Source: Acidobacteriota bacterium (GTDB lineage: Bacteria; Acidobacteriota; UBA890; WLXD01). From it: a stretch of 64,000 nucleotides of DNA. Shown one piece after another: positions 21,173 to 38,588 of the stretch; position 1 is the stretch's first letter; every line of letters begins with the position of its first letter. The DNA lies in contig CAXWPH010000009.1 of the NCBI GenBank assembly GCA_963666055.2, positions 17,227 to 81,226 on the forward strand, given 5' to 3'. A model generated the notes under the pieces. That model did not search any database. It was not told where the DNA came from and saw only the letters and a program-made list of their open reading frames with translations. The position numbers were made by a program, and so were the translations under genes.

Positions 21173-21179
21173 TGGCTTC

Positions 21180-22541
21180 CTAGCTCCCGGTGGCGTCGGC
21201 CACAGCGACCGCCTCGGCGTGGGCAAGCCCCGACTCCTTCAGCTTCGAGGCGGTCTCGCGTGCCGAGGCCTGATCGTCGAATTCACCTACGGTGAGTCGA
21301 TACATCGTGCCCATGCCGGGAACGTCGGCTCCGATCAGGAAGTGGACGTACCCAGCTTCGTGCAGACGTCCGCGCAACTCGAGGAGGTAGTCATCGTCGG
21401 GCTGCCGGAATGAGCTCAGATAAACCGTGAAGGGTTTCTGCGGCATCACCAGATCGACGACTACGTTGCCGCTACCGAAGGTCACGTCGTTCGGTGCCGC
21501 GCTGAGGCTGCCCTCGGCGCGCGGCGTCGGCGGATCGGCGAGCGCTGTGGTCTGGTTGGCGCTCCAGGCAGCGTAGCTGCCGGCACCGAGCGCGGCAGCC
21601 AACACGATTCCGGCGAGCGCCTGTACCGGCTTCGCCGAGCGCGCCTGTGCCGGCGGCTGCGAGACCATGTGGACGGGCTCCGGCCGCTCGATCGGCGCTG
21701 CGCCCGGCTCGGTCAAATCGAGTGTGGCGGCGGCTCGATCGATGATACCGGCATCGATCAGTCGAGTCTGCTGCGCGTAACCGGCAAGCAAAGCGCGGTC
21801 GCCCAGCAGGTTGACCAAGCGTGGCACACCTTCCGTATAACGATACAGACTGTCCAGGGCCGCGTCGTCGAACACCACGTCGCCATCGCTACCGGCGATG
21901 CGAAGTCGATGGTCGATGTAGCGGCCGACCTCGTCACGCCCGAAGGGCTGCAGCGTGTAGCGAACGGAAACCCGCTGTGCCAGCTGGCTGAGCTCGGGGG
22001 AGGCGAGCAACCGCCGCAGGCCGAGCTGCCCGGCGAGGACAATCTGCAGCAGCTTCTGCTTCGAGGTCTCGAGGTTCGACAGCAGACGGATCTGCTCCAT
22101 GACCGGCAGCGGCAAGTTCTGCGCCTCGTCGACGACGAGAACTGCGGCGCGACCCTGCATGCTGAGACCGATCAGATAATCGTTCAGCCGATCGACGAGC
22201 TCCTGTTTGCTCGCTTCCAGACCCTGCCCACCCTCGAACTCGGCCCGCGTGGCAACGCCGAAGTCCTGCAGGATGATGCGCAGCAAGTCCTGCTCGGACA
22301 GGTACGGGTTCAGGACGATCGCCGTAACGATGTCGTCGCCGAAGCCATCGAGCACGGTGCGCAGCAGCGTCGTTTTGCCGGTGCCAGCTGCCCCGACAAA
22401 GCACATGAAGCCCTCGCGCTCACGCACACCGTAGCGCAGCAAATCGCGTGCCTCCGCGTGGCACCCCGAGGCAAAGAAGTACTTCGGGTCGGGGGTCAGG
22501 CTGAAGGGCTTCTCGATGAGCCCGTGGAAGTCTAGATACAT
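21180..22541 (-). CDS. ExeA/MshM-family AAA ATPase with C-terminal SPOR-like domain
   Basis: MYLDFHGLIEKPFSLTPDP, GAAGTGKT, DEAQNL, IRLLSNLET, GVPRLVN. Confidence 0.9.
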   Translation of the reverse strand: MYLDFHGLIEKPFSLTPDPKYFFASGCHAEARDLLRYGVREREGFMCFVGAAGTGKTTLLRTVLDGFGDDIVTAIVLNPYLSEQDLLRIILQDFGVATRAEFEGGQGLEASKQELVDRLNDYLIGLSMQGRAAVLVVDEAQNLPLPVMEQIRLLSNLETSKQKLLQIVLAGQLGLRRLLASPELSQLAQRVSVRYTLQPFGRDEVGRYIDHRLRIAGSDGDVVFDDAALDSLYRYTEGVPRLVNLLGDRALLAGYAQQTRLIDAGIIDRAAATLDLTEPGAAPIERPEPVHMVSQPPAQARSAKPVQALAGIVLAAALGAGSYAAWSANQTTALADPPTPRAEGSLSAAPNDVTFGSGNVVVDLVMPQKPFTVYLSSFRQPDDDYLLELRGRLHEAGYVHFLIGADVPGMGTMYRLTVGEFDDQASARETASKLKESGLAHAEAVAVADATGS

Positions 22542-22560
22542 TGCTGGCCTCCGAAATCCA

Positions 22561-24303
22561 TCACTGGCCGTAACGCGCACCCGCGGCTGAGCGACGGCGC
22601 ATCTCGAGGCGCTGTAGCTGGTCGCGCATGATCTCGCGTATGCGGTCGCCGTTGAGTATCGTCGGGGTGATCATCACGATGAGGTCTGACTTGCGGGTGC
22701 TGCGATCCTGGCGCCTGAACAACGCGCCCAGGATCGGGATGTCCCCGAGTATCGGGGTCTTGGACACGGTCTCGCGCGTGACGTCCTCGAGGAGACCGCC
22801 GATAAAGATGGTCTCGCCCTCCCGAACACGGATGACGTTGTCGGTCACACGTACGTCCATGATCGGGAAGCGATCGCCGTTGGGCGAAATCGCCTCGCCG
22901 GCGAGGCCGGTAATCGCCGGCTGGATGCTCATCGTGATCCAACCATCGGCCGATATCTGCGGCGTAACCGAAAGGATGACGCCGTTGGTGACGGTGCCGG
23001 GGTTGGTCACCGTCTGAGCCAGTCCCCCATGTTCGTTGAACACGATCTGCGTGGTAAAGAACACCTCCTGCGTACCGACGGTCAGCAGCGCAACCTGGTT
23101 GTTCATGGTCACAACGGACGGCGACGACAGCACGTCGACATCGCCCTGATTCGACATCGCGCCGAGGATGGCGTTGAAGTTCTGGCGCTGGATACCGGCC
23201 TGGAAGATGTTCAGGCCGCTGGCGCCAACCGTTTGGGCAGCGGTCAGACCGAGATCGGTGAACACGGCGCTCCAATCGACGCCGGCGGCAAATTCCTGGT
23301 GCATCAGCACCTCGACGATCTTCGCCTCGATCAACACCTGCCGTTGAGCGATTTCCTCGACCGACGCCAGGTACTCACCGATCTCATCGAGCACGTCCGG
23401 ATAATGACGCACCATGACGCTGCCGGCGCTGCGATTGACGTGCAACGCGGGGCCATCGCCGCCGCCGAAGCCGCCGCCGCTGCCGAAGCCACCGAGCCCG
23501 CCGCGCAGCCGCTGGCGGTTGGGATCAAGCGGATCGAACCCGCCGCCGGCGAAACCGCCGCCGTATCCGGAGCCCATGAGAAAAAGAGTTCCCTCAGTGA
23601 TGTCGTCCCAGATGAAGCTCGGATCGCTCGACTGCACGGAGGCGGAGCCGCCGCCGCTGCCAGCGCGTCCACCACCGCCAATACCACCGCCAATACCACC
23701 GGCGCCCCCGTTGAAGCCACCATTGTTACCCTGGACACCGGTGCTTACGCCGATCGTACGCGAGCCGTTCCGGTCGGTCTGCACGATGTCGAGAAAGAAG
23801 AAGCGCGTCTCCATCTGCCGAAGCCCGATCTTCAGCACCCGGTTCTCGACTCGGTATTGGAGCCCGAGCGGGGTCAGCAAGCTGTCCAGCAGAACCGGCA
23901 GCGTCACGCCGACGATGTCCTGTGTCACTACGCCGGACACATCCGGCTCGATGACTATCGACAGATCAGACTCGCGCGCCACCGCCAGCAGGACGGCGCG
24001 GACGTCAGTCTCGCGCACCCTGAGGCTGTACGAGCGGCCGGGATCGTAGCCGGTGTCGTCGAGCGACTCCTCGATCGACGTGGCCGGTGCTTCGGCGATG
24101 CGGGCCTGCGGACCGAAGTCATCGATCGACGGGCGCCCGGGCTCGTCCCAACTGGGCAGCGAGGGCGCTGCGGCTGTCGATGTGGTCGGCGCTGCCTGGG
24201 CGTTGTTGTACCCACGCGACACGCAACCCGGAATCACGGCAACGGCAAGTAGCAGTGCCGCGGCCGTCTTCCAACGGGACGTTCGTACGCTTCGGTTTGT
24301 CAT
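22561..24303 (-). CDS. lipoprotein secretin, MshL-like
   Basis: Lipobox IPGC, QVLIEAKIVEV, LSSPSVVTMNNQ, VTPQI, PILGDIPILGALF; Gly-rich inserts. Confidence 0.9.
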   Translation of the reverse strand: MTNRSVRTSRWKTAAALLLAVAVIPGCVSRGYNNAQAAPTTSTAAAPSLPSWDEPGRPSIDDFGPQARIAEAPATSIEESLDDTGYDPGRSYSLRVRETDVRAVLLAVARESDLSIVIEPDVSGVVTQDIVGVTLPVLLDSLLTPLGLQYRVENRVLKIGLRQMETRFFFLDIVQTDRNGSRTIGVSTGVQGNNGGFNGGAGGIGGGIGGGGRAGSGGGSASVQSSDPSFIWDDITEGTLFLMGSGYGGGFAGGGFDPLDPNRQRLRGGLGGFGSGGGFGGGDGPALHVNRSAGSVMVRHYPDVLDEIGEYLASVEEIAQRQVLIEAKIVEVLMHQEFAAGVDWSAVFTDLGLTAAQTVGASGLNIFQAGIQRQNFNAILGAMSNQGDVDVLSSPSVVTMNNQVALLTVGTQEVFFTTQIVFNEHGGLAQTVTNPGTVTNGVILSVTPQISADGWITMSIQPAITGLAGEAISPNGDRFPIMDVRVTDNVIRVREGETIFIGGLLEDVTRETVSKTPILGDIPILGALFRRQDRSTRKSDLIVMITPTILNGDRIREIMRDQLQRLEMRRRSAAGARYGQ

Positions 24304-24338
24304 CCCAGATCTCCTCAATCCAGCTCTCAGCGGGCTCA

Positions 24339-24926
24339 TCAGTACCTCCCGACGGTGCCGCTGCGCGAGCTCAGACCGATCGCGGCGTCAGCCATTCTCA
24401 AGACATGCCGTTGTCCTCCAGAGGCGAAGACCACGGTCTCATCGGTTACATCGACTACCTGCATGCCGGCGACGTTGTCGCCGACGGTCACGACTTCGTT
24501 GTTGATCACCGCTACGCGGCGCCCAGTGCTATCGGTCACGATCGCTGACAAGTACAGGTCCTCATCCATCGTGACGCCAGCATCGACATAGACCGGGGCA
24601 AAGTTGTCGAGCGCCCAGATCTCGCGCGGTGTGAAAAATGGATTGCGACCCCAGTTCGAGTCGATCGTCAGATCGGCGGCGGTCAGCTCGCCGCGGCGCT
24701 GCGTCGCTTGGGTCGGCGTTCGCGGTGAGCTCGGCACCGGCCGTTGACCGGGCGTAGCCCCCGGCTGCTCAAAGCCCGGTGGGCTCAGGTTGGGATCCTG
24801 GGGCAGGGGTCCGGTCTGCGTGTCGCCGCCGAAACTTCCCCCCACGCCGGTGAAGTAGAGCGCGTTGTACAGCAGCACGGCCACAAAGACGATGATCAGC
24901 ACGGTCAGGACGTTTCGGCTACCCAT
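24339..24926 (-). CDS. MshK/PilP-like assembly protein
   Basis: N-terminal TM, GRNPFF, LSAI..RRVAVINNEVVTVGD; position before the secretin. Confidence 0.65.
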   Translation of the reverse strand: MGSRNVLTVLIIVFVAVLLYNALYFTGVGGSFGGDTQTGPLPQDPNLSPPGFEQPGATPGQRPVPSSPRTPTQATQRRGELTAADLTIDSNWGRNPFFTPREIWALDNFAPVYVDAGVTMDEDLYLSAIVTDSTGRRVAVINNEVVTVGDNVAGMQVVDVTDETVVFASGGQRHVLRMADAAIGLSSRSGTVGRY

Positions 24927-25584
24927 TGCCGCCTCCCTGAGCTCCGACGGGTCCGCGAGAGCGACTTGGATTCGCGTCGCCAGACGACGTATCCGAGGCG
25001 CTGGGACGGAAGTAGACGAGCAAACGTAGATCGGTAACTACTTCAGGGAAGGCGCGCTGGATCTCCAGACCCGCCACCTCGGCAACCCAACCCAAACGTC
25101 CGACCTGAGCAATGAAGCGGCTCGTGGCGACGAAATCTCCGAACACACGGCAGTTGAGTGGCACGTAGCTGGCACCCGGCACGGCACCGATCACGCGGAC
25201 AGACTCCGGCGGTGCACCACCGGTCCCAGCCACCGGCGCGGCGCTCTCACTGGTGATGAACAGCTCTATCCCCTCGGCCTCCCCCATCCGTACGAGCGAC
25301 TCGATCAGCAGGGTGAGCTCCGACTCCGGGCTGAGGCGGCTCATCAACTCGTCGTTAGAGCTCTGCCAGGCGGCGCTCTCGGCCGGTGAAGTGGGCGGAA
25401 TGCTCTCGATCTGGCGCTCTATCTGGTCGAGCTGTGATTCGGCAGCCTCGATGTTGCTGGTGGCGGCTGCCTCGCGCGCTCGCATCGGCTGTACGAACCA
25501 CAGCCAAAGCAAGAGCGCCACGAACAGCACCGCCATGCCGAGAATGGCAGCGCGAACCTGGGGTTGCAGATCCGACCAACTCAT
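24919..25584 (-). CDS. PilO/MshJ/GspM-like assembly protein
   Basis: TM plus coiled coil plus ferredoxin-like GDF..FI..V domain; gene order. Confidence 0.65.
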   Translation of the reverse strand: MSWSDLQPQVRAAILGMAVLFVALLLWLWFVQPMRAREAAATSNIEAAESQLDQIERQIESIPPTSPAESAAWQSSNDELMSRLSPESELTLLIESLVRMGEAEGIELFITSESAAPVAGTGGAPPESVRVIGAVPGASYVPLNCRVFGDFVATSRFIAQVGRLGWVAEVAGLEIQRAFPEVVTDLRLLVYFRPSASDTSSGDANPSRSRGPVGAQGGGNG

Positions 25585-27416
25585 TGTCCGCCTCCGGCGA
25601 TCGACCTGAGCTGAAGGGCGACCTTGAACCCGACCGACGTCGCCGTCGGTCCGAAGGCCGGCAGTTCATCCAGCGTGGTACGTAAAGGTTGCTGATCTCG
25701 GGGACCGCTCGTTACCGCGCCACGGCCGACCCACATCGGATCAAACAGCCACAGGCTGCTAGTGCGATCGTCGCGCGTCACCGCGGGTCGCCCGTTGCTG
25801 AACGATCTGTTGTTGAACGACCGGGGCCGCGATTCAGCGAAGGCGCCGCGTTGGAGGCTTCTATCACGGTCATTGCGCGTCACCGCTGATCGCCTGCCCT
25901 TGAACGAGGTTCCCCCTGGAGCGAAGCGGCCGCGCTGAGCGCCCAACTGTCGGGCCTGCTGCAACACCGCCGGGCCGCTGCGGGCGCCCTCCCACCCGAT
26001 CACCAACGGTTCGATCAGATGCACGTCGTGGACGATCGGATCGCTCACCATAGTGCTGTAGAAGCGGTTGAAGATAGCCTGCGAGCCTGAGCGCGAGTCG
26101 CCCAGCACCAGGCCCTGGACGACGGCATCCCAGTACCGCTGACCGCGTGGGCCGGCGACCGGTTGCCAGGTGACGTTCTCGATGACGAGCTCTTCCGGGG
26201 CCCGCTGGCTGAGACGTTGCAGAACTGCGCCCATCAGCGTTGTCTCGAGCGAGCGCTGCTCCAGCAGGGCTCGCCGTGCGGCGTGATTCGAACGCTCCTG
26301 CGCTGTGGCGCGAACCTCCCATAGCTCCAGCTGCCGCTGCGAGATCTGCTCCTGCACCTGCGCCATGCGATTGTTCTTGACTGCGGAGTTCAGCAGAGCC
26401 AGCACCCCCCAGCCCACCAGGAATAGCAACAAGGCCGCGGCGGCCACACGGCCGATCGACATCGCCTGACGGGTGCGGTCCTCGTTGACCTGCTCGGGAG
26501 ACACCAGGTTGCCGCTGTCTTTCCGGGCCATCGACGCCGCCCCGAAAGCCACCGCAAGCGCCGGCTGCTCGATCGGGTCAATGGCGTCGTTCAGGTCGAC
26601 GTGGTCGCTGACATCGAACAGCTCGACGTTTACGCCAAGGGACTCGCGCAGATGGGACGCCAGATCGGTGAGATCCTCCATGGGCCCAGCGAGCACCAGC
26701 CGCTGCACCGTAGCGCCTTGGGCACGCTGCCCGAAGTAAAGAAACGAGCGACGCAGCTCGGTGGCTACCAGATCGGCCATCGAGTCGGAGTCGCCGCGGA
26801 GGACGAAATCGTGCACCAGCTCGAGGTTCCCGTCCTGGAACACCAACAGGTAGGAGCGGCTGCCCGACAGGTAGGCAATCGCGGTACCGCCAGCGATCGG
26901 CGGCAACAGCTCCATCGCCTGCGCCAGCGCTGCAGGAACCGTGGTCACCGCATCGGCGCTGAGGCCGGCAGCCTCGACAGCGTCGATGGCATTGCGCATC
27001 GTCGATTTGTCGATCGCCGAGATCAGCACTTTCTGCTTGGCGACCCCGCCCTCGTGCACATAGCCAACTGCCATGTGTGAGTACACGAGCTGGCTCTCCG
27101 GAACTGGCGCCAGCTTGCGCACCTCGGCACCGGCGGCCAAATGGCGCTCGCTATCCGACATCTCGGGCATGTTGACCAGGTAGTGGTAGATATCACCGTC
27201 GATCACCACGGCGCGCGCCGATCGGCCGCCAATGCCCACGGTCTCGAACCAACGGCGAATCCACTGGCCCAGCTCGCGACCGCTAAAGCCGGCGTGGGCG
27301 GCATGGCCGGCACCGACCACACGCGGTGGGTCGCCGCGCAGCTCAGCGGCAGCCACGCTGCGCCCGAGCTCGATACCGACGCGACCGCCGCCGCGCAACT
27401 TATCCATGAAACCCAT
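25581..27416 (-). CDS. PilM-PilN fusion (MshI/GspL-like)
   Basis: Actin-like N-terminal domain (VGIELG, ELRRSFLYF, LVLAG), NL motif, TM, coiled coil, PilN-like domain. Confidence 0.75.
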   Translation of the reverse strand: MGFMDKLRGGGRVGIELGRSVAAAELRGDPPRVVGAGHAAHAGFSGRELGQWIRRWFETVGIGGRSARAVVIDGDIYHYLVNMPEMSDSERHLAAGAEVRKLAPVPESQLVYSHMAVGYVHEGGVAKQKVLISAIDKSTMRNAIDAVEAAGLSADAVTTVPAALAQAMELLPPIAGGTAIAYLSGSRSYLLVFQDGNLELVHDFVLRGDSDSMADLVATELRRSFLYFGQRAQGATVQRLVLAGPMEDLTDLASHLRESLGVNVELFDVSDHVDLNDAIDPIEQPALAVAFGAASMARKDSGNLVSPEQVNEDRTRQAMSIGRVAAAALLLFLVGWGVLALLNSAVKNNRMAQVQEQISQRQLELWEVRATAQERSNHAARRALLEQRSLETTLMGAVLQRLSQRAPEELVIENVTWQPVAGPRGQRYWDAVVQGLVLGDSRSGSQAIFNRFYSTMVSDPIVHDVHLIEPLVIGWEGARSGPAVLQQARQLGAQRGRFAPGGTSFKGRRSAVTRNDRDRSLQRGAFAESRPRSFNNRSFSNGRPAVTRDDRTSSLWLFDPMWVGRGAVTSGPRDQQPLRTTLDELPAFGPTATSVGFKVALQLRSIAGGGQ

Positions 27417-27418
27417 GA

Positions 27419-27550
27419 TCACCTCTGGCCGTTGACCGGCCGCTGTCGGTTGAGTTCAGCGTTGAGTTCAGACGCGTCGTCCGCAGGTTCGGCGTCGTCG
27501 ATGATCGTGGCGCCGGCCTCGTTCTTGGCGACGTAGTTGAACCTCGGCAT
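27419..27550 (-). pseudogene. N-terminal stub of the PilC/GspF/MshG platform gene (43 codons)
   Basis: MPRFNYVAKNEAG..IDDAEP matches the MPxFxYxAxxxxG start of GspF/PilC; lies 4 bp after the ATPase gene, where gspF is expected. Confidence 0.7.
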
Positions 27551-27554: not shown

Positions 27555-29309
27555 TTACTCGCGCCCGACGCGCCCGAGCTCCTCCAAAGTAGTCTGGCCA
27601 CGCCGCACGACCTCGAGGCCGTGCTGCATGAGCGTGCGCATTCCTTCCCGCATCGCGACCTCGCGAATCGCCCGCGTATCTGCCTGGTGCTTGATCGTTT
27701 CGCGAATCGCGTCGCTGACCATCAGGATCTCGAAGATGCCGGTGCGACCGACGTAGCCACTATCTCCGCAGAGGTGGCAGCCGGCGCCGCGCAACCATTC
27801 GCCATCCAGTGGCTCACCCTCGAGGCCAAGCCGCACGAGCATCCCCATGTCGGGCTGTACAACCTCGGCGCAGTGCTTGCACACCTTGCGTACCAGCCGC
27901 TCGGCAACGGTGGAAATCATCGTGGAGCCGATCAGATAGGGCTCGAGCCCCATGTCGATGAGGCGCGGGAACGTGCCCGCCGCCTCGTTGGTGTGCAGCG
28001 TCGAGAGCACCAGGATGCCGGTCAACGCGGCTCGCATGGCCAGCCCTGCGGTCTCCGGATCGCGAATCTCACCGAGCAGAATGACGTCGGGATCCTGCCG
28101 CAGCACCGAACGCATACCGGTCGCAAAAGTGAAGCCGGCACGGTTGTTGATCTGGCTCTGGCGGATCTCCGGAATGCGATACTCGACCGGATCCTCGAGC
28201 GTCACGATGTTGTTAGCGAGCATGTCGAGGTGCGACAGCATCGTGTAGAGGGTCGTCGTCTTACCCGAGCCAGTCGGCCCGGTGAGCAGCACGATTCCCT
28301 TGGTTCGCTTCACGGAGTCCTCGAGCATCTCCAGCGTGGAGCCCTCGAGGCCGAGCTCGCCCAGCCCGCGGAACAGCATCTGCCGCTCGAGCAGACGCAG
28401 GGCAACCTTCTCGCCGAACACCGTCGGGAAGCAGGAGACACGAAGATCGACCTCTTTGGAGGCAACGTGGTAGGTAAGATGGCCTTCCTGCGGCAGTCGC
28501 TGCTCGGCGATATCGAGGCCGGCGATGATCTTGATGCGCGACATCAGCGAGTGCTGGATCTGCTTCGGAAGCAACGGTCCTTGCTGCAGGAGCCCATCAA
28601 CGCGATAGCGCACCCGTACGATCTCTTCCTCAGGGTCGATGTGAACATCGGTGGCGCGCAGGCGTAGCCCCTGGTTGAGGATCTCGTCGACCAGGCGCAC
28701 CATCGGCTCATCGGCGGAGGCGCCGGGGTCGGAAACGAAGATGCCGCCGCGCGCCACGTTCTGGCGCTCGGCGTCCTGTCGCTGCACCGTCTCGCTGACC
28801 GGGCCCTCCAGCACGCCGGCACCGCCGTAATACCGGTCGATGGCGCGGCGAACGTCGCCCTCGGTGGCGCAGAACTGCTTCACCTGGAAGTTTGTACGAC
28901 GCTCGATCTCGTCAATGGCGAGGATGTCGAACGGATCCGTACAGGCGACCAGCAGGCTACTGCCGGAAACGGCCACGGGCATGACCTGAAAGCGTGGTGG
29001 TACGTCGCGCGGTACCGCCTGCACGGCGGCGTTCTCGACCTCATCCGGCCGGAACTCGCGGAAAGCAACGCCGGCCATGTCAGCGAGGGCACGCGCCAGC
29101 GTCTCCTCGGTGAGCAGGCCCTGATTGACCAGTACCTGTCCGAGATGCGCACCATCGCCGGCATTCTGCCGCGCCAGCACATCATCGAGCTGCTGGCGCG
29201 TCAGCTGGCGGCGATCGACAAGATAGTCGCCAAGACGCACCGACACAGGGCCACTGGGCGAATGCCCATTGGAGCCACCGTAGGCGTTCTGGTTGTCTCC
29301 GTGCTGCAT
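27555..29309 (-). CDS. GspE/PilB/MshE assembly ATPase with MshEN-like N-terminal domain
   Basis: RLGDYLV..Q..HLGQVLV, TDVHIDP, GPTGSGKTTT, EDPVEY, RQDPD, STLHTN, two CxxC. Confidence 0.93.
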   Translation of the reverse strand: MQHGDNQNAYGGSNGHSPSGPVSVRLGDYLVDRRQLTRQQLDDVLARQNAGDGAHLGQVLVNQGLLTEETLARALADMAGVAFREFRPDEVENAAVQAVPRDVPPRFQVMPVAVSGSSLLVACTDPFDILAIDEIERRTNFQVKQFCATEGDVRRAIDRYYGGAGVLEGPVSETVQRQDAERQNVARGGIFVSDPGASADEPMVRLVDEILNQGLRLRATDVHIDPEEEIVRVRYRVDGLLQQGPLLPKQIQHSLMSRIKIIAGLDIAEQRLPQEGHLTYHVASKEVDLRVSCFPTVFGEKVALRLLERQMLFRGLGELGLEGSTLEMLEDSVKRTKGIVLLTGPTGSGKTTTLYTMLSHLDMLANNIVTLEDPVEYRIPEIRQSQINNRAGFTFATGMRSVLRQDPDVILLGEIRDPETAGLAMRAALTGILVLSTLHTNEAAGTFPRLIDMGLEPYLIGSTMISTVAERLVRKVCKHCAEVVQPDMGMLVRLGLEGEPLDGEWLRGAGCHLCGDSGYVGRTGIFEILMVSDAIRETIKHQADTRAIREVAMREGMRTLMQHGLEVVRRGQTTLEELGRVGRE

Positions 29310-29399: not shown

Positions 29400-30839
29400 T
29401 TATTTAACCCTTTTGACCATCATGACGACGCCGGCAACGGCAGGCACGGCGGGGAGCAGGATCACCAGCAGTGCGAAGGTGACCGCCTTTTGCCCTTCGG
29501 TCAGCAGGACGCGCTTGTTTGATACCTCCTTCGGAAGGATCGAGATGAGCTCCTGCTGCCCGGCCAACCAGCTCACCGAGTTCACGAACAGGTCGCCGTT
29601 GCCCTGCCAATTGAAGAAGGCGTTGGTGGCGAACTCGACGTCGCCGATGGCGACCAGGATCGGCTCACCCACCGGTACCGGCTCACCGGTACGCTGACGC
29701 TCACGGAACGCTCGGGGCGTCTCGTCGAGCAACTCCGACACCGCCACGACGAGCGGCAGCGGACCCTGACGATCAACTCCCTCGTCCCAGCGCGCCATCA
29801 ACGCGCGCTCGAAATCGGTCTCGCCCCACGACGACGGGGTGCTGCTGGCCAGGGCGCGGGCGTCGATGCCTTCGGGCAATGTGTCGATGGTGATCGATCG
29901 CGGCATGCTGAACAGCGTCATGGCGCCGAAGCCGTCGGTAATCGGGTGGGGCTCGTACCGATCGACCATCGGCACCTGTACGCCGAGGCCGAAGGCCTGC
30001 CCGTTGCGCCCGGTATCGATGATGAAATCGGCGTTGACCTGAAGGCCATAGCCGGCAACCAAGGCCTCGATCTCGGGCAGGTCGGTGTTGCTCTCGAGCA
30101 TCGCCATCAGCCGGCCGCCGTTCTGTAGATAGGATTCCAGGGCGGCGCGCTCCTCCGACAGCAGGTCGGTGCTCGGCCCGGCGATGAGGATGACGCGGCA
30201 GTCGTCGGCCGCCTGACCCGCGGCCAGGTTGAGCTGCAGTGGCTCGTAGTTGACCTGCCTCAACGCGGTGACGGCGGCCGAGAAGCCACCGCGACCCTTG
30301 TCCACAGGTAGCCGCTCGCCGTGCCCTGACAGGAAGCAGACCGGCACCGCATCGCCCCGCGTCGCCGCCAGGATGGCGTTGGTGATCGCCGGCTCACTCG
30401 GACCGTCGGCGCGGCGAACGGAGTCGCCGGCCTCGATGATCAATGTCCCATACGTGCGTACCTGGTGCGCCTGGGCAAGCGCCGGCTCAGCCTCAGGGTC
30501 GACCAGCCGATACTCGATGAACGAAGAACCGTCGGCGTAGCCTTTCAACAGACGCTCGACACTCGGATCCTTGGCGCCCTGGACAAACGCCGTCAGGGTC
30601 ACCGGCTGATCGAGCGTGTTCAGCGCCGCTCGGCTGGAAGCCGACAGACTGAACAGCTGTGCTTCGGTGAAGTCCCAGGTCAGCGGGTTGTAGGTGACCA
30701 CCCAGCTCACTAGGAACGCACAGGCCAGAAACAGCACAAGGCGCAGGCCAGCGAACGTCCACTCGGTCACTCGCAGGCTGGTAGCGAACAGCTGCCGAAG
30801 CCGTTGCAGGCGCGGCTCGGGGTTGACGGCGGCGCTCAT
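29400..30839 (-). CDS. GldG-like ABC transporter auxiliary protein
   Basis: WDFTEAQLFSLS, VDP, GHGE, IAGP, GD.EF..N, NGDLFVNSVSWL, C-terminal TM. Confidence 0.85.
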   Translation of the reverse strand: MSAAVNPEPRLQRLRQLFATSLRVTEWTFAGLRLVLFLACAFLVSWVVTYNPLTWDFTEAQLFSLSASSRAALNTLDQPVTLTAFVQGAKDPSVERLLKGYADGSSFIEYRLVDPEAEPALAQAHQVRTYGTLIIEAGDSVRRADGPSEPAITNAILAATRGDAVPVCFLSGHGERLPVDKGRGGFSAAVTALRQVNYEPLQLNLAAGQAADDCRVILIAGPSTDLLSEERAALESYLQNGGRLMAMLESNTDLPEIEALVAGYGLQVNADFIIDTGRNGQAFGLGVQVPMVDRYEPHPITDGFGAMTLFSMPRSITIDTLPEGIDARALASSTPSSWGETDFERALMARWDEGVDRQGPLPLVVAVSELLDETPRAFRERQRTGEPVPVGEPILVAIGDVEFATNAFFNWQGNGDLFVNSVSWLAGQQELISILPKEVSNKRVLLTEGQKAVTFALLVILLPAVPAVAGVVMMVKRVK

Positions 30840-31630
30840 GAGCTGCGCACTCCTCGCCACCGCAAGCTCTCGAGAGCCAGGTGGGTCATGAACAAGAAGA
30901 AGGCGGTGAACCAGAGCAAGTAGTTGGCGTCGGGCAGGCTGATCACACCGACGCGGAAGTCGCCGAAGTGGTGATGCAATGACAGCCAGCGAACACCGTC
31001 CTGCCAGATGCTGGGCAGCAGGTTCGCGGGCGCGTCGACGAACCAGAAGATCAGCAGCAGGCCATAGCCGCCGAACGCCGCCACAACCTGGCTCTCGGTT
31101 AGCGCCGATACCCACAGCGTCGCGGCCAGCATGGCCGCGGACAGCAGCAGCAGCCCGAGGTAACCGGTAATCCAGACCGCCGGCTCGTTGGCGCCGAAGT
31201 ACGCGAGCACGTATTGGAAACAGAAGGTCGGTGCCAGCAACACCACCAAGAACAGAAAGGCGCCGGAGAACTTGCCCCACATGATGCCGGCATTGGTGAC
31301 CGGTGAGGTGAGCAGTAGCTCCATGGTGCGGCGTCGCTTCTCTTCCGCCAGCAGCGCCATCGCCACGATCGGCAGTATGAACACCAGCAGCCACGCCGTG
31401 ATATCGAGGAAGCTGGTGCCGATCATTGCCGGTACGTTGAGCAAGTTGCCTTGCGGCCCGAGCTGCTCGGCCCGAACGTCGGCGCTGCGTCCTTGCACCA
31501 CCCAATAGTTCAGAATGGAAATGAAGAACACTGACTCGGCGAGCCAGAAGACCGCCATGAGCGCGTACGCTACCGGCGACACGAAATAGCTGTGTAGCTC
31601 ACGCTTGCAGATTGCCCAGGCTCCGCGCAT
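30836..31630 (-). CDS. GldF-like ABC-2 permease
   Basis: RELHSYFVSPVAY, AEEKRRRTMELLLTSP, GKF. Confidence 0.9.
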   Translation of the reverse strand: MRGAWAICKRELHSYFVSPVAYALMAVFWLAESVFFISILNYWVVQGRSADVRAEQLGPQGNLLNVPAMIGTSFLDITAWLLVFILPIVAMALLAEEKRRRTMELLLTSPVTNAGIMWGKFSGAFLFLVVLLAPTFCFQYVLAYFGANEPAVWITGYLGLLLLSAAMLAATLWVSALTESQVVAAFGGYGLLLIFWFVDAPANLLPSIWQDGVRWLSLHHHFGDFRVGVISLPDANYLLWFTAFFLFMTHLALESLRWRGVRSS

Positions 31631-31648
31631 CAACCCTCTCCTTTTCCG

Positions 31649-32620
31649 TCAGGCCACACGCGGCTGTTGGTCGACGTCATCAGAATCCGGCTCCTCTGTA
31701 AGTCGTAGGAAGATTTGCTCGAGGCTGAGCTCGATACGGCTTATGCCGACAAGCTCCCAGCCACCGTTAACAATCGCCGCAGCAAGTTGCGGGCGGAGGT
31801 CTCTGTCGGCCGACGTCGCAACCTCGCAGCGCCAACAACCTGGCTCGGTGTCGTCGACCAGGGCGACGTTGTCGGCGCCGGCGACAGCCTGAAGCGCGCG
31901 ACGCATCGCGTCGACGTCGCCGCGAGCCTGTAACACGATCTTATGGCCACCGCTGAATCGCTTGGTCAGCGCCGCCACCGTATCGGTGGCAACGACTGCT
32001 CCCCGGTGCAGCACGACGAGCCGCTCGCAGGACGCGGCGATCTCGTTGAGGATGTGGCTCGACAGAATCACCGTGTGCTCGCCAGCGAGCTCACGAATGA
32101 GCTGGCGTACCTCGATGATCTGACGTGGGTCGAGCCCAGAGGTCAGCTCGTCGAGAACCAGCAGGTCAGGCGAGTGCAGGATCGCCTGCGCCAGCCCGAC
32201 GCGTTGCCTGTAGCCTTTGGAAAGCTGCTCGATTGGCTGCCCGGCTCGATCCTCGAGCCAGCACAGGGTGAGGGCGCGCTCGACAGCGGCGGCGCGCTCC
32301 GACCTGCGCATACCCTTGAGCTCGGCCACGAACATCAGGTACGCGCGGACGCGCATCTCCGGATAGAGCGGCGGAACCTCGGGCAGATAGCCGACGTGCC
32401 GCTTCACCGCCAGAGGCTGGCGCGCGACGTCGTGCCCGGCAACCTGGACTACGCCCGAGGTGGGGGGCATCGCACCCGTCAGGATACGCATGGTTGTGGT
32501 CTTGCCAGCGCCGTTCGGACCTAGCAGCCCAACAACCTCGCCGGCGGCGACGTCGAACGAGATGCCGTCCAGGGCGGCGACCGAACCGAAGCACTTGGTC
32601 AGATTCTCGATGTGGATCAT
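31649..32620 (-). CDS. GldA-like ABC ATP-binding protein
   Basis: GPNGAGKTT, LSKGYRQR, LVLDELTSGLDP, SSHIL. Confidence 0.92.
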   Translation of the reverse strand: MIHIENLTKCFGSVAALDGISFDVAAGEVVGLLGPNGAGKTTTMRILTGAMPPTSGVVQVAGHDVARQPLAVKRHVGYLPEVPPLYPEMRVRAYLMFVAELKGMRRSERAAAVERALTLCWLEDRAGQPIEQLSKGYRQRVGLAQAILHSPDLLVLDELTSGLDPRQIIEVRQLIRELAGEHTVILSSHILNEIAASCERLVVLHRGAVVATDTVAALTKRFSGGHKIVLQARGDVDAMRRALQAVAGADNVALVDDTEPGCWRCEVATSADRDLRPQLAAAIVNGGWELVGISRIELSLEQIFLRLTEEPDSDDVDQQPRVA

Positions 32621-32750: not shown

Positions 32751-32800
32751 CCATGACAGTACTTGTCCGTCCATGGCCGTCCTTGTCATATCTTGAGAGG
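32751..32800. repeat. degenerate 10-bp tandem direct repeats
   Basis: ccatgacagt/acttgtccgt/ccatggccgt/ccttgtcata/tcttgagagg upstream of the ABC genes. Confidence 0.6.
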
Positions 32801-32842
32801 TCAAAAATGGCCAAGAATAGCTTGGGGTGACTAATTGCTGGA

Positions 32843-33694
32843 TTACCGAATCCCGCCTACCCCTGCCAGCACGGCGGTTTGATCGTCGCCACCCGTGTAC
32901 CAGCCCCAGGGCTGGTCGAAGGCGGTCTCGATCTGCTCGTTCGGCCCCGCCGAGTAACAGACCACGGCCGAGCTGAAGAACGGCTGATGGCGGCGCCAGT
33001 ACGCATGGGTGTTGTATAGCGTAGCCGGCGGCAGGTGCAGGGCGAAGACATTTGCCATGTAGCGGTTGCCCCACGGATCGGCATTGATGCGGTCGGCGAT
33101 GTACGGACCACGCCATGGTGAATGCTGGTCCGCGAATCCGTCGACCAGGAAGCTCAGGCCAACCTGATAGTACGCGTCGGTGTCGGCGATGAACGTGGCG
33201 CCGCGCTGCAGCTGCCAATGGGTGGCGCCGATCGCCGAGGCTGGAATATCGCCGTTGCCGACCAGCAACCCGGCCGCCTGGTAGGAGCCGCCGGTGTTGT
33301 AGCTCACGCCGGTCGAATAGGCATTGACCGCACCCGGGCTCGACTGCCCGCCGGTAAACGAGTACGTCTGCGTCGTCACCCCGGTCTGTCGCGTGGTGGG
33401 CTCACCGCACCACTCACCGCAGTCATCCACACAAGCGCCGCAATCGCCTGGCGCCAGGTCGCAGCCTTCGCACCACTCCATGCTGGTGGTGTGGGTCTGC
33501 TGCTGGACGAGCAGCTGCCCGCCGCTCGTCGCGCCGTAGCCGGAGGCCGCGTAGCCGGTCTGATAGCTGCGGTCGTAGCTTCCCCAGAAGGCGCTCTCGC
33601 CGACATCGTCGAGCATCATCTTGAGGGCCGTGCACAGCACGCCAAGGTCATCGCTCAGGCGAATCTTACGCGCCAGAGAGTTGAACTGGCCGAT
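32843..33694 (-). pseudogene. GspG-like large pilin lacking leader and hydrophobic helix; Cys-rich insert
   Basis: Open frame IGQFNSLARKIRLSDDLGVLCTALKMMLDDVGE ... WRGPY..DPWGNRY..SAGPN..GDD; no G|FTLxE upstream. Confidence 0.7.
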
Positions 33695-33813
33695 GCGTCC
33701 TCGAAGATAGCGCCTTCGCCGACGTCATCGAGCATCGCTTTGATCACCGAGCATATGGCGCCGAGATCCTCCTTGACGCGAACGAATCGGGCGAGCCGCT
33801 TATACCGGGCGAC
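33695..33813 (-). pseudogene. isolated alpha1-C fragment of another pilin paralogue
   Basis: VARYKRLARFVRVKEDLGAICSVIKAMLDDVGEGAIF aligns with the same segment of neighbouring pilins; out of frame with the downstream copy. Confidence 0.65.
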
Positions 33814-34144
33814 CGCGTTGTGCACCGGATATGCCGAGAGCTGGCGACGTGAGCCACGTCGTTTGCGTGGTCCCCAATGTAGAGCCAACAGGAAGGCTTG
33901 ACCAAACCATCGCGCCCAGCGGCCGCGTTTGGCCCGCCGGTCGTGCCCTGGCGTCGTCGACCCTGGCAGCAGCAGCCAGCTCATGCCAGCACCCGCAGGC
34001 AAGCGGCTCAACGCGCGTCTGCGGAGTCCCAGCCTGGCGGTACATCGCCAGGGCCGCCCACGATTAGCAGATCGGGACATCGGCGGCCATGACCGCGCAC
34101 CGGTGCTCCGGCGGGCGCGCATGTGCGCGGCACTCTGGCGAGCA

Positions 34145-34594
34145 TCAACCGGAATCGTGTTCGCCTACGAGCTTGAGACCGGCATCGCCACCATGGTTCT
34201 TCTGCCAGTACGCGATGTCCATTTCGCGGAACCGCCAGTGGCCACCGACGCTAACGTACGGCAGTCGACCCTCGACGACCTCGCGCACCAGGGCATCGCG
34301 AGTCATCTCGAGGCGCAAGGCCAGGGTCGCAACCGTCTCTACGCGAATGCTGCTTTCCACGTGAGATCCCCAACTGGTCCAGGCTTGGTCAACAATTGGG
34401 TGGAGCGTATGCAGCCTAGGCAATCCGCCGGCACGTTCCAGCCAGAGCTCGATGTCGCGTTCGCGAAAGCGCAAGTTGCCCGCAATGCTGACGTAGGGAA
34501 GCCGACAACGCTTGACTTCGCGCTCGATGGTGCGGCGCGGCAGGCCGAAGCGTTCTGCCAGAGTTTCGACGGTCTCGAGGCGCTGCCGCTTCAT
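34145..34594 (-). CDS. tandem double excisionase/BldC-like HTH protein
   Basis: Two repeats of ETVxTLAxR....RLPYVSxxGxxRFRExDI. Confidence 0.8.
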   Translation of the reverse strand: MKRQRLETVETLAERFGLPRRTIEREVKRCRLPYVSIAGNLRFRERDIELWLERAGGLPRLHTLHPIVDQAWTSWGSHVESSIRVETVATLALRLEMTRDALVREVVEGRLPYVSVGGHWRFREMDIAYWQKNHGGDAGLKLVGEHDSG

Positions 34595-34814
34595 TGCTCA
34601 CAACCGGGGGGTTCAAGGACTTGCCTTGTCTGGTGGAGAGCATGAAGCGAGCGCTGCGCACGCGCAACAGATCGAGTCCAGCCTTGGCCGCACGGGTCCA
34701 CCGACCTCTGCCCCAACCGCAAAGACGGGTAGCAAAGGGACGGGTGGGAAAGCGCCAGATACCGCCGAACGTTCGGAGCCGTGGTTGGCTACGAGTCGCC
34801 GGCCACTGCGAACC

Positions 34815-35045
34815 TCAGAGTGAGGAGGACGCGTGGCGGCCTCGGCCGCCCTGAATCACGCGGAAGCGCGAGCGCTGCAGGCGGGAGCGCAAGTAGGACT
34901 CGACGTCGACCTTTCGATAGCGCCGGCGTCCTCCCACCATGACGAACGGGAGACGGCCGCGAGCCACCTCGCGCTGCACCGTCCTGGGGCTGACCTGTAG
35001 GTACTCGGCCAGCGAGAAGGTGGTGAACAGGGTTGTATCGGCCAT
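34815..35045 (-). CDS. excisionase/BldC-like HTH protein
   Basis: TTFSLAEYLQVSPRTVQREVARGRLPFVMVGGRRRYRKVDVESYL. Confidence 0.85.
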   Translation of the reverse strand: MADTTLFTTFSLAEYLQVSPRTVQREVARGRLPFVMVGGRRRYRKVDVESYLRSRLQRSRFRVIQGGRGRHASSSL

Positions 35046-35068
35046 CTGCGTCGACCTGTTTGTGGGGC

Positions 35069-35260
35069 TCATTCGCTCGATCTCTGTACGCTGGAATCGA
35101 CCCTACCGTTCGTCAACAAAGTACGCAAACGGCGCCGCAGCGCGGTGGCCCGCCATGTCCGGTGAAAACGCGCGATTCGATCAGAGGATCGACAGTGGTG
35201 GCCCTGGTCGCGTCGATCATGCCGGCTAGGCTGCAGTATGGCGAGCGACCCTCGACTCAT
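35069..35260 (-). CDS. questionable 63-aa ORF
   Basis: ATGA overlaps at both ends but Arg/Ser-rich with no motif. Confidence 0.2.
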   Translation of the reverse strand: MSRGSLAILQPSRHDRRDQGHHCRSSDRIARFHRTWRATALRRRLRTLLTNGRVDSSVQRSSE

Positions 35261-35928
35261 TGGATCCGGGCGCTGATGTCGAGGGGGCTGGCAGCGGCGT
35301 TGCCCAGCAGCTGCGCGTCGGCCGACGGGTACAGGGTGTCGAAGACACCATCAGGGCCCGCCGACAGGGCCCATACGGCCCGCTTCTGCTGCGCGCCACC
35401 GGCCTCGAAGGCGCCGGGATTCACCGACAGGTACTCCACGTTGATAGCGTAGCGGTTGCCCCATGGATCGCTCTGCATGTGCGCGTTGAGGTAGGGGCCG
35501 TTCCAACCCGATCCGCTGAGTGCGGTCTTCAACGGATAGCCGATGTCCCCTGACGAGGGACGATTATTGACCAACTGGTTGGAGATGAAATCGACCATCG
35601 TGGGGTCTGTGTTCAGCCAGGGCTCTGCACCAAGGCGCGCCTCGCCAACGGCGCCGGGCGAGACCAGCAGGGCGATGCGGCTCTGCCGCTGGCCGTCGGC
35701 GAACTGGGCGTGAAATCCGTTGTCCCGAAAGAACTCGAAGACCGAGTCGGCCAGGATCCGCACGTCGTTCTGCGCTCGTGCGAGCCGCGATTGGTGCAAG
35801 AAATTGAAGACCGACGGAGCAAGGATCAGACCGAGAATGGCGATCACCGCGAGGATGATGGTGATCTCCAACAGCGTGAAACCGCGCGCCCGCGCGCCGC
35901 TGCCGTCGGCTTCCGGCACTGGATTCAT
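35257..35928 (-). CDS. GspG-like pilin/pseudopilin, intact
   Basis: RG|FTLLEITIILAVIAILGLILAP, WNGPY, DPWGNRY, SAGPDG. Confidence 0.9.
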   Translation of the reverse strand: MNPVPEADGSGARARGFTLLEITIILAVIAILGLILAPSVFNFLHQSRLARAQNDVRILADSVFEFFRDNGFHAQFADGQRQSRIALLVSPGAVGEARLGAEPWLNTDPTMVDFISNQLVNNRPSSGDIGYPLKTALSGSGWNGPYLNAHMQSDPWGNRYAINVEYLSVNPGAFEAGGAQQKRAVWALSAGPDGVFDTLYPSADAQLLGNAAASPLDISARIQ

Positions 35929-36515
35929 CTGCTGCCCCCGGACACCACGCGGATCAAGTCGTCGTCGCCAGGTACCACGCCGTCGATCTCGAACGGCGTA
36001 TCGACCTCCTCGTCCGGGCCGGCAGACATCACGAAGATATCGAAGCGGTAGCCGGCGTTGTCCTCGGTGGCGCTGTCGGCGATCGGGTCCAGGTACAGAA
36101 CGTTCACCGCATAGCGGTTTCCCCAGGGGTCGGATCGCACCGGCGCCGACACGTAGGGGCCGCGCCAAGCGAACCGCGCGCCGAACCCTTGCTGGTTGGC
36201 GAACGGAGCGTTCCTAGACGGTACGGCGGCGATCCTGTCCTCGGGGGTCCGGTAACCGGCCGACGGTTCGTTGCCCGGCGTGTTCTGCACGAGATGGTTG
36301 GCAAGAGTATCGACCACGTGCCCATCGTACGGGCGCCGCCAGAGCCAGAGGTCGTCGCCGTTGCCCTCGTCAGGAGTGTCGCCGTCGCTGACGAGGCTCA
36401 GCACGGTCAGCACCACGAGGATGATCGTGTCCTCCACCAAGGTGAAGCCGCGGGCGCTCGCCTGGAACGATCGCATCCGTGCGGTGCGCGTCGTCTTGAG
36501 GTGAGTGCGGGTCAT
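35925..36515 (-). CDS. GspG-like pilin with in-frame deletion of most of alpha1
   Basis: RG|FTLVEDTIILVVLTVLS joins directly to LVSDGDTPD, skipping roughly 45-60 aa present in the intact paralogues; WRGPY, DPWGNRY, SAGPD, GDDD retained. Confidence 0.75.
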   Translation of the reverse strand: MTRTHLKTTRTARMRSFQASARGFTLVEDTIILVVLTVLSLVSDGDTPDEGNGDDLWLWRRPYDGHVVDTLANHLVQNTPGNEPSAGYRTPEDRIAAVPSRNAPFANQQGFGARFAWRGPYVSAPVRSDPWGNRYAVNVLYLDPIADSATEDNAGYRFDIFVMSAGPDEEVDTPFEIDGVVPGDDDLIRVVSGGSR

Positions 36516-36525
36516 CGAAGTCTCT

Positions 36526-37380
36526 TCAGCGCAAGGAACCGTAGGAAACCGGGTAGGCGATGTCGTCGTCGCCGAGAACGAAGCCGCCGACGGAACCGAA
36601 CGGCGTATCGAGCTCCTCGTCCGGACCTGCCGAGAGCACGATCACAGGCCGGATAAAGCCGACCGAGTCGCCGCCCTGAGGCACCGTCAGCCAAGCGACG
36701 TTGGCCATGTAGCGATTGCCCCACGGATCCGGACGGATTGCATCCAGATAGGGGCCGCGCCAGGCGAACTCCGAGTTGAAGCCCTGGCCACTGCTGCCGT
36801 CAAAGTGTAATCCGCCAGGCACACCCGAGCTGTGATCGCCCGAGACCATATCGGCGGGTGTCCGATAACCCTTCCAGTCGGGGCCAGTGCCGCCATCGCC
36901 AAAGTCGCCCGGGTAGTTCTGGATCAGGTGATTGGCGAAGGTGTCGACAATTCCGCCGTTCAGCCATACATCGGGAAAGTCGGTGCCGGCATCGCCCACC
37001 GTCGAGCCCAGCGGCTCGCGCCACTCATAGAACTGACTGCCACCATCCGGCGTATCGCCATCGCCGATGAGCAGGCCGACCGGCGGAGCGTCACCGTCCT
37101 CGGAGTAGCGCTCGGGCGAGCGCCAGCTGGAGCCGCCCATGGGTTTGGAGTGGAACGAGCTCTCGCCGGTGTCCTTCAGCATGTGCATCATTGCAGCGCC
37201 GATCGCGGCAACATCCTCGCGAACGCGCGCGTCGCGCGCGTCGCGCAAGAACACCCCAACCTGCGGCAGCAGAATGGCCGACAAGATCGCCAGGGCCATC
37301 ACGATGATCGACACCTCGATCAGCGTGAATCCGCGATCACCGACGTTATTCTGGTGCCGTCCCTGGCCCAGTTTCGTCAT
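36526..37380 (-). CDS. GspG-like large pilin/pseudopilin, intact
   Basis: GGGAG RBS, RG|FTLIEVSIIVMALAILSAILLP, DGDTPD, WRGPY, DPWGNRY, SAGPDEE, GDDDI. Confidence 0.9.
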   Translation of the reverse strand: MTKLGQGRHQNNVGDRGFTLIEVSIIVMALAILSAILLPQVGVFLRDARDARVREDVAAIGAAMMHMLKDTGESSFHSKPMGGSSWRSPERYSEDGDAPPVGLLIGDGDTPDGGSQFYEWREPLGSTVGDAGTDFPDVWLNGGIVDTFANHLIQNYPGDFGDGGTGPDWKGYRTPADMVSGDHSSGVPGGLHFDGSSGQGFNSEFAWRGPYLDAIRPDPWGNRYMANVAWLTVPQGGDSVGFIRPVIVLSAGPDEELDTPFGSVGGFVLGDDDIAYPVSYGSLR

Positions 37381-37424
37381 GGCTTTCTCCCTGCGTTTTC
37401 GGGCGTGGCAGGCTCGACGCATCG

Positions 37425-37909
37425 TCATCGTCCCGGCACGCTGTCGGGCCCGGTCGAGAACAACACCGCAATGTCGTCGTCCCCGGGGACGAACCCGTCC
37501 ATTTCGAAGATCGAATCGATTTCCTGATCCGGACCCGCCGACAGCACCACCACATCGATGCCGTCCGTCTGGCTCAGGAAGTAAACGTTGGCGGCGTAGC
37601 GGTTGCCCCACGGGTCGCCGTGGCCGAGGTTTAGGTAGGCGCCGCCCCAGGCGTGCAACTGCGAGAGCGTGCCGGCGATCGGATCGCCGCACTCGGCCAG
37701 GCTCGCGAAAGCGCGGCCGGGGTCGTTTCCGGGTACGTTGGAGATCAGGTAATACTCGAAGAAGTCCACCCATGTGCCATCGACGGGCTCTGCCCAGCGC
37801 TCTCCGCCTTCGGGTCCCAAAGCCGGGATGTCGCCGGCGGTAACTAGAATCTCGACAGCGTCGCCGTAGCCGTGATCTCGATCATCGTCATGCCATCGTT
37901 ACGGCTCAA
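37425..37909 (-). pseudogene. GspG-like pilin with out-of-frame deletion of alpha1
   Basis: GGGGAG RBS, TTG start, LSRNDG|MTMIEI, then a frame change near 37872 into GYGDAVEILVTAGDIP...WGGAY..DPWGNRY..SAGPD..GDDDI. Confidence 0.75.
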
Positions 37910-37985
37910 GGAATTCTCCCCTGGCGAGGGCACGGCTGCCGTAAATCTCCGGCGTCTGCGCCTCGGCGCAAACCGCAGACCATTT

Positions 37986-38204
37986 TCAGCGAATCGCCGC
38001 AACACGCTCTCCGAACAACGGTGTCGCGTCGTAGCGATCCTGCGATTGGCTCTGCAAGTACGTCTCCACGTCCTCCGGGCGATACCGGATGAGGTCGCGG
38101 ATGCGGATGTACGGCAGTCGGCCGGCCTCACGCTCTCGACGCACGGTATGCGGCGAAACCTGCAAGTACTCGGCCAGAGATTCTGTCGTGTGAAGACCCA
38201 ACAT
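37986..38204 (-). CDS. excisionase/BldC-like HTH protein
   Basis: GGAGG RBS; TTESLAEYLQVSPHTVRREREAGRLPYIRIRDLIRYRPEDVETYL. Confidence 0.85.
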   Translation of the reverse strand: MLGLHTTESLAEYLQVSPHTVRREREAGRLPYIRIRDLIRYRPEDVETYLQSQSQDRYDATPLFGERVAAIR

Positions 38205-38277
38205 TGACTGCCTCCGTGTTTCCCCGCCCTTGCGGGGGTTCGGTCAACTGCGGTGCGAGTACAGGACCCGGTAGGAC

Positions 38278-38571: not shown

Positions 38572-38588
38572 AGCAATCGCCGTGCCAA
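38572..38588 (-). promoter_or_regulatory. sigma54 (-24/-12) promoter of the HTH/pilin operon
   Basis: Minus strand TTGGCACGGCGATTGCT, a full match to TGGCAC-N5-TTGCW. Confidence 0.9.

Follow-up and report, generated by a model that had tools for sequence, protein, structure and literature searches.

Probable recent decay of an MSH-like type IV filament operon by large deletions in its pilin array

The window considered here is a 64,000-nucleotide stretch of an acidobacterial genome (G000:C9:17227-81226; assembly of 5.73 Mb in 15 contigs, 95.7% complete), which we compared with 10 other genomes of the same family. The window's own genome is called G000 and the others G001 to G010. Its minus strand carries a type IV filament locus with a tandem array of pilin genes, several of which are damaged. 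The locus runs from a kinase gene and a regulator gene through a promoter motif, two HTH_17 genes, the pilin array, a trio of ABC transporter genes and an assembly ATPase gene to the remaining machinery (Table 1). Across the family, the gene order is H1-H2-P1-P2-P3-P4-P5-H3-H4-H5-P6-P7-(variable)-PL-ABC-pilB-pilC-PX-pilMN onward, where H1 to H5 denote HTH_17 genes and P1 to P7, PL and PX pilin genes; deletions carry D labels. The pilin family was found in all 10 other genomes, and P1 to P5 are whole in relatives, among them members of the same genus, and stand in the same order as in the window. PL is inverted relative to the array in G006 and G009, and about 8 kb separates P6 from P7 in G006. 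The five small Xis/BldC-like HTH_17 genes lie within the pilin operon (34145-35072 and 37986-38496), and their order is kept wherever the family loci cover them. An 82%-identical duplicate of H1 and its upstream region is found at G000:C15:535626-536265, with no pilin of the window's pilin family alongside.

Table 1. Features of the filament locus, in window coordinates and in the order of transcription.
Feature	Position	Strand	Remark
Sensor kinase, PilS-like by position	40360-41994	minus	syntenic in relatives
Sigma-54 response regulator, PilR-like by position	38965-40359	minus	syntenic in relatives
Sigma-54-type -24/-12 promoter motif, intact, upstream of the operon	38573..38587	minus	pattern scan; putative promoter
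H1 and H2, HTH_17 (Xis/BldC-like)	38278-38496 (H1); 37986-38204 (H2)	minus	Pfam HTH_17 above cut-off; conserved in relatives
P1 5' stub, leader and mature residues 1-7, left side of D1	37871..37909	minus	
P2 C-half remnant, residues ~127-276, out of frame with the P1 stub	37425..37870	minus	clusters with P2 orthologues
P3, intact GspG-like pilin	36526..37380	minus	93% identical to G002 orthologue
P4, in-frame deletion D2, Asp at helix position 6	35925..36515	minus	
P5, intact GspG-like pilin	35257..35928	minus	
H3, HTH_17 gene	34815..35072	minus	
H4+H5, HTH_17 genes merged in frame by D3	34145..34594	minus	separate genes in G002-G004
P6 remnant, mature residues 27-62, cut by D4 and D5	33696..33804	minus	
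PL (last pilin) remnant from residue 23/24, right side of D5, internal D7	32843..33696	minus	
GldA/GldF/GldG-like ABC transporter trio, intact	29400..32620	minus	NCBIfam matches below cut-off
PilB/GspE/MshE-type assembly ATPase with MshEN domain, intact	27555..29309	minus	
First ~16 codons of cognate pilC joined to PX tail by D8	27419..27550	minus	junction spanned by contigs
pilM/N-like, pilO/gspM-like, pilP-like, MshL-like secretin, ExeA/MshM-like ATPase and TPR genes, all frames open	19874..27422	minus	

The pilins have class III signals, DPWG and SAGPD motifs and weak matches to T2SSG and TIGR01710, the scores for the latter (GspG major pseudopilin) being 34.2 and 43.4 bits, below its cut-off of 88.85. 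Their closest named matches are records labelled Acidobacteriota. A structural model of intact P3 (mean predicted local distance difference test score, pLDDT, 74.8; helix at residues 5-56) was compared with 48,161 chains using VIA-align and matched EpsG with Z 5.2 (root-mean-square deviation 3.0, 101 aligned) and PulG with Z 5.0 (root-mean-square deviation 3.8, 122 aligned). The modelled fold is thus consistent with a GspG-like pilin, at middling Z values. The comparison with GspG, PulG and EpsG of the type II secretion system holds for the class III signal, the DPWG and SAGPD motifs and the best fold matches, whereas the pilins of this family are about twice as long and have large insertions. 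MshA was matched by profile over the first helix, alpha1, only (E 0.0012), and its fold scored Z 2.2 versus 5.2 for EpsG.

The rest of the locus resembles that of the MSH (MSHA) pilus, for which the part of the published model drawn on here lists mshA, mshE, mshG and mshL, together with mshM, as mandatory genes (PMC6668835). Like the locus outlined there, the family's locus unites an MshEN-type ATPase, a platform protein, an MshL-like secretin, an ExeA/MshM-like ATPase and a TPR protein in one place. In the window, the best family of the secretin is TIGR02519 (MshL), at 200.2 bits against a cut-off of 250.2, with Secretin_N_2 also below cut-off. T2SSE+MshEN and AAA_22+SPOR proteins are present as candidates for the MshE and MshM ATPases. 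The MshG/PilC platform gene is deleted in the window, so that this mandatory component is missing there; it is whole in six of the 11 family genomes (G002, G003, G004, G006, G009 and G010). A prepilin peptidase gene is present in the G000 genome and none was found in the filament locus, a further likeness to the MSH locus as far as that source describes it. Unlike the MSH locus in the same description, the locus has GspG-like pilins of 200-310 residues in an array of up to about ten, and five HTH_17 genes, a PilS/PilR-like pair and a GldAFG-like ABC trio belong to it. Judged by these sequence matches, it is a predicted MSH-like type IV filament locus with GspG-like pilins. A literature search found no description of a long GspG-like pilin array with five HTH_17 genes, and the intact locus of the relatives may deserve one.

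Comparison with G002, G003 and G004 identified seven deletions specific to the G000 lineage, of 109-1949 bp or more, all inside 27502-37870. D1 (984 bp, junction 37870) brings codon 7 of P1 up against residue ~127 of P2, out of frame. The first-pass annotation, made from the letters of the window, had taken 37425-37909 as one copy that loses alpha1 from about +7; the frame does read ...G|MTMIEIT and then runs out of frame, but two genes are involved, a P1 stub and the C-half of P2. D2 (213 bp, junction ~36393) removes residues 19-89 of P4 with the frame kept, which bears out the in-frame loss from about +18 proposed for 35925-36515: the break follows mature residue 18. P4 also has Asp at position 6 of its hydrophobic helix, where relatives have Val. 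D3 (138 bp, junction ~34411) fuses H4 and H5 in frame, and D4 (~197 bp, junction 33804) has taken the start of P6 and its residues 1-26, the N-terminal part of alpha1. D5 (junction 33696) measures 1276 bp against G002 and 8238 bp against G003 and joins residue 62 of P6 out of frame to residue 23/24 of PL. Within PL, D7 (109 bp at ~33111) is accompanied by a 2-bp loss 13 bases upstream, so that PL is shortened with no net change of frame. This 2-bp loss (~33107-33125) may have restored the frame by chance (about 1 in 3), as part of one complex event, or as compensation during continued translation. Lastly, D8 (1949 bp, junction ~27503) fuses pilC, after its first ~16 codons, to what is left of the tail of the pilin gene PX, and confirms the loss of pilC that had been proposed.

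Accordingly, the array in the window comprises seven pilin genes, two intact (P3 and P5) and five damaged, and not six paralogues with four damaged as had been counted, since D1 joins two genes. Other details of that earlier description hold in part. The fragments at 33695-33813 and 32843-33694 start near each other in the protein, P6 at mature residue 27 and PL at 23/24, and not at an equivalent position; 33805-33813 is intergenic DNA upstream of the P6 remnant, which begins at ~33804. The three globular domains described as open are stop-free, but they are partial: the C-half of P2, P4 without the C-terminal part of alpha1 and the next loop, and PL minus 109+2 bp. DPWGNRY is encoded at all five places given for a shared 21-bp block, which is a conserved protein motif with synonymous differences and not a DNA repeat.

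The lesions are real. The runs X1, X2 and X3 each contain one contig, 5260-5262 nt long, that spans 33055-38314 free of gaps and differing letters, and X7 yields shorter exact pieces that cross four of the junctions. The pilC junction is spanned by contigs covering 22840-33083 (X1) or 19521-33083 (X2 and X3), with one difference each. Two studies supplied these runs, and the assembly may itself derive from one of them. No alternative joints were seen in the contigs of the four runs, where only the deleted form is present; nor were pilin-gene variants, although at a depth of about 6 contigs drop rare variants. The deleted segments were not found elsewhere in the G000 assembly, at its 95.7% completeness.

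The junction ends share 0-6 exact bases, summing to 12 versus 5.3 at random (P 0.028), and with one mismatch allowed the D7 and D8 junctions share 7-8 bases. No motif is shared among the junctions. No join is in register between paralogues, which led us to reject homologous recombination between paralogues as the cause of the deletions. All six callable G000-specific deletions of at least 100 bp lie in this locus, among 245,963 three-way aligned sites; D5 was left out of this count, an insertion sequence (IS) in G004 at that place having made it uncallable. No deletion of at least 100 bp was found in the rest of the window when polarised with the three relatives. A gap near 19272 was considered and dropped, as comparison with the relatives showed that it is not a G000-specific deletion.

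Divergence of the remnants is no faster than in the sister lineage. On the G000 branch they accumulated 10 non-synonymous and 20 synonymous changes over 466 codons, a ratio of non-synonymous to synonymous rates (dN/dS) of 0.156, and the same genes have 0.163 on the G002 branch. In these counts the 5' part of PL was scored at 32 of 189 codons, as G004 lacks it, and three controls without three-way orthologues were left out. Further values on the G000 branch are 0.106 for P3 and P5 together, 0.231 for the machinery and about 0.2 for the controls, the last being a hand-computed value (~0.20) without the control gene 43551-45041. Neutrality along the full G000 branch would predict about 68 non-synonymous changes in the remnants where 10 were observed, which bounds the neutral time at about 13% of the branch, or 0.008 substitutions per site. 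The probability that no stop arises in the three remnant frames is 0.58 at 0.008 substitutions per site and 0.89 at 0.002. Since the dN/dS of the remnants, 0.16, is that of the sister lineage, very little time has passed since the loss and an absence of stops is to be expected; the open frames tell of a recent loss and are no sign of selection on the remnants. Small frameshift-type insertions or deletions (indels) occur in intergenic DNA on the G000 branch at 0.072 per substitution, and one or no small frameshift was found in about 21 kb of system coding DNA, which limits neutrality of the whole system to at most about 0.003 substitutions per site, an estimate that rests on rough gene calls.

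The same system has been lost or broken repeatedly, by different lesions, in three other family genomes. The cognate pilC gene is broken in G007 and deleted with a visible junction in G001 and G005, as in G000; it was not found in G008, which is 71% complete. G001 has its own deletions, from P1 to P4 and from P6 to pilMN, and G005 lacks everything from P6 to the TPR gene, the join carrying a transposase-like frame; neither genome retains pilB or the ABC genes. Lesions in P1 to P5 affect nine of 20 genes in G000, G001, G005 and G007 versus one of 28 in the six genomes with whole pilC (these genomes are kin, not independent), and none of the five in G005. The frameshifts in G007 and in pilB of G006 could be assembly errors. 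Damaged distal pilins are also found where the machinery is whole: G002 has a stop in P6 and a P7 cut at +5, G003 has several array breaks, and in G004 an IS takes the place of the 5' half of PL. Each of the five genus members has at least one lesion in the array. Two observations concern pilins outside the array. G003 and G004 have an unlinked pilin island that G002 carries in truncated form and that the syntenic site in G000 lacks, and a single intact unlinked pilin of the same family (G000:C15:1681239-1681964) is syntenic in G002 and G004. The divergence of G000 from G002 also drops from about 8% to 1-4% over ~27500-33300, a stretch that holds pilB, the ABC trio and PL's 3' end; against G003 and G004 there is no such drop. 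This block is possibly the product of a recent allele exchange between the G000 and G002 lineages; we considered it as a deletion-defined recombination tract, for which its borders are diffuse.

We think that these data probably record the recent decay of an abandoned filament system by independent deletions, likely aided by selection. In a tandem operon of old, divergent GspG-like pilins, the seven deletions have removed parts of five array pilins, of a sixth pilin and of the cognate pilC, leaving a system that is likely unable to build a filament and is likely being lost. Each deletion appears to have arisen on its own, by illegitimate recombination between ends that share 0-6 bases. Single pilins were probably dispensable while the machine still worked, as in G002-G004, where pilC is kept and distal pilins are damaged; loss of pilC would then have released the proximal pilins, and selection against the cost of expressing useless pilins probably hastened the process. 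The frequent loss of alpha1 is partly a matter of geometry, because a deletion that crosses the boundary of tandem genes always takes the 5' end of the downstream gene (D1, D5 and D8).

The lesions have the marks of recent pseudogenes: they are genome-specific, orthologues in relatives are intact, and divergence is no faster. In this they resemble the young pseudogenes of Salmonella, which are described in the part of the source cited here as very recent and genome-specific, without accelerated divergence, and as removed by positive selection, with expression cost or anomalous proteins as likely causes (PMC2916853); removal may likewise have been favoured here. In the Salmonella set as given there, a single inactivating mutation is found in 346 of 378 pseudogenes, with short deletions predominating (PMC2916853), whereas here seven deletions of at least 100 bp fall in one operon.

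Several points weigh against decay as the full account. Six of the seven deletions lie in the array (P 0.003-0.03, depending on ancestral size), a more uneven pattern than purely neutral decay should leave. About 16 kb of machinery remains untouched, as do the regulator pair and the promoter motif; both P3 and P5 are intact, and system coding DNA has a single small frameshift despite the intergenic rate of such indels. In G005 the machinery is lost and P1 to P5 are whole. The junction microhomology is modest (the sum of 12 given above), and the frameshifts of G007 and G006 are possibly errors. So many large deletions in a short time suggest either selection for loss or that pilins were lost first while the machine was kept.

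An unlikely alternative is that unassembled pilins became harmful in the inner membrane after pilC was lost, and that lesions removing the alpha1 anchor were selected, as the first-pass annotation had listed among its options. All five damaged array genes have a lost or spoiled anchor, P4 through both the cut at +18 and the Asp at +6. When deletions of the observed sizes are placed at random, alpha1 is hit in at least five of the seven genes with P 0.027, and hit with the last 90 codons spared in at least three genes with P 0.042. Harm by prepilins is known from a Synechocystis pilD mutant, according to the section of the source cited (PMC8546353), and the portion of another source used here reports that PilS senses pilin in the membrane in Pseudomonas (PMC6058289). 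Yet the simulation tests are post hoc and marginal, and P3, P5 and the unlinked C15 pilin keep full anchors. The promoter motif is intact though one lesion there would silence all genes, and a prepilin peptidase gene is present, unlike in the Synechocystis case. Relatives do not repeat the pattern: in pilC-less G001, P1 and P6 are cut at +90 and +119 with anchors kept, and the lesions of G002-G004 mostly spare alpha1. A literature search on toxicity of unassembled pilin in platform mutants found nothing on point. Support for the proposal is weak and post hoc.

A broader reading, to which we give a similarly small chance, is that this Acidobacteriota family has an undescribed MSH-like locus, with up to about ten long GspG-like pilins and, among them, five BldC/Xis-like genes, whose array is pruned by directed deletion or by strong selection against the anchor, its lineages trimming or switching off their repertoire by bursts of large deletions and not by gene conversion.

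It is also rather unlikely that the system still works in pruned form, with P3 and P5 assembled by the intact ATPase, alignment complex and secretin on a platform protein taken over from a different type IV filament locus. The machinery other than pilC is open and has a dN/dS of 0.23 on the G000 branch, D2, D3 and D7 preserve the frame and would hence be non-polar, and the genome has two other pilC/gspF genes. These are the only ones, however, and encode distant paralogues at 27-28% identity; open frames are expected after so short a time, and G001 and G005 have discarded pilB and the ABC genes altogether.

We regard as very doubtful a locus-directed deletion process that prunes the pilin repertoire, through repeated breaks at an array under heavy transcription or on DNA to which the five Xis/BldC-like proteins encoded there bind. 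It would fit the finding that a very short time brought seven large deletions but a single small frameshift, an array lesion in every one of the five genus members, and the conservation of five HTH_17 genes inside the array throughout the family. The junctions, though, have neither a common motif nor a common register, the lesions of relatives include nonsense codons and IS insertions, and the contigs of the four runs hold no alternative joints. Moreover, most of the background consists of DNA under selection, and selection would be expected to give clustering too.

The first-pass annotation had further proposed that the truncated copies form a reservoir of silent donor cassettes which convert P3 or P5, like pilS in Neisseria; we find this highly improbable. 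In the excerpt of the source used here, pilS loci are non-expressed partial copies that feed pilE by unidirectional gene conversion, for which a guanine quadruplex (G4) motif is needed, and the donors can be identified within the expressed pilE gene (PMC4023411). The likeness is that partial pilin frames, stop-free and lacking the conserved 5' part, occur close to complete pilin genes. This applies to the P2, P6 and PL remnants, while P4 retains both its start and its signal peptide, and no two breakpoints coincide. Unlike the pilS system as described there, the window has no donor-recipient DNA identity or mosaic tracts. Exact matches between window copies reach 18 nt at most, and no remnant shares more than 17 nt with P3 or P5; the maximum is similar in arrays made up of intact genes, at 18 nt in G002, 21 in G004 and 20 in G010, and is 33 in G003 and 59 in G006. 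Among 112 windows of 45 nt, the best match is to the copy's own positional orthologue in 111, including all 49 from P3 and P5; the one exception is leader DNA outside the comparison library. At the protein level, identity between copies is about 30-42%. A tree of 79 C-terminal cores, which has few columns and leaves some forks open, gives P1, P2, P3, P5 and P6 a starred clade apiece that extends across genomes; the P4 orthologues are placed with the nested P2 clade, and every G000 remnant groups with its own orthologues. The generic G4 pattern has a single match over 27001-42000, at 34727 between H3 and H4, and none upstream of P3 or P5. Nor is the partial state conserved, again unlike pilS in that account: the truncations of G000 occur in none of the 10 relatives, whose orthologues are full length or broken at other places. 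The contigs of the four runs, which at a depth of about 6 drop rare variants, contain no pilin-gene variants. Whole genes in relatives without mosaicism, which the first-pass annotation had equated with simple decay, are essentially what was found.

The remaining proposal, that the junctions are assembly collapses among paralogues, might suit a metagenome-type assembly with paralogous genes in tandem but is refuted by the gap-free single contigs of X1, X2 and X3, the independently spanned pilC junction, the joins out of register and the lack of long repeats in common between paralogues, and keeps practically no chance.

If decay by deletion is the right reading, the window clearly shows a type IV filament operon just as its loss begins. 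It also advises caution, as plain deletion within a tandem array gives rise to pilin frames that lack the 5' end and contain no stops, and such frames are not necessarily cassettes. Should the excess of large deletions truly reflect selection or a directed process, the family would provide repeated natural tests of selection-driven gene loss.

Three observations lie outside the filament locus. At G000:C14:36060-36358, near a Tad-like locus, a Peptidase_A24 match is split over two frames, and the Tad-like system may also be decaying. A block of type III polyketide synthase-like, oxidoreductase and methyltransferase genes, named from sequence, lies at 16250-19272 of the window; it is present in G000 and G002 and absent from G003 and G004. 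Finally, ~8340-8623 is a copy of a repeat element of about 280 bp; elements of such size occur in many copies across the G000 genome and are, by size, like miniature inverted-repeat transposable elements.

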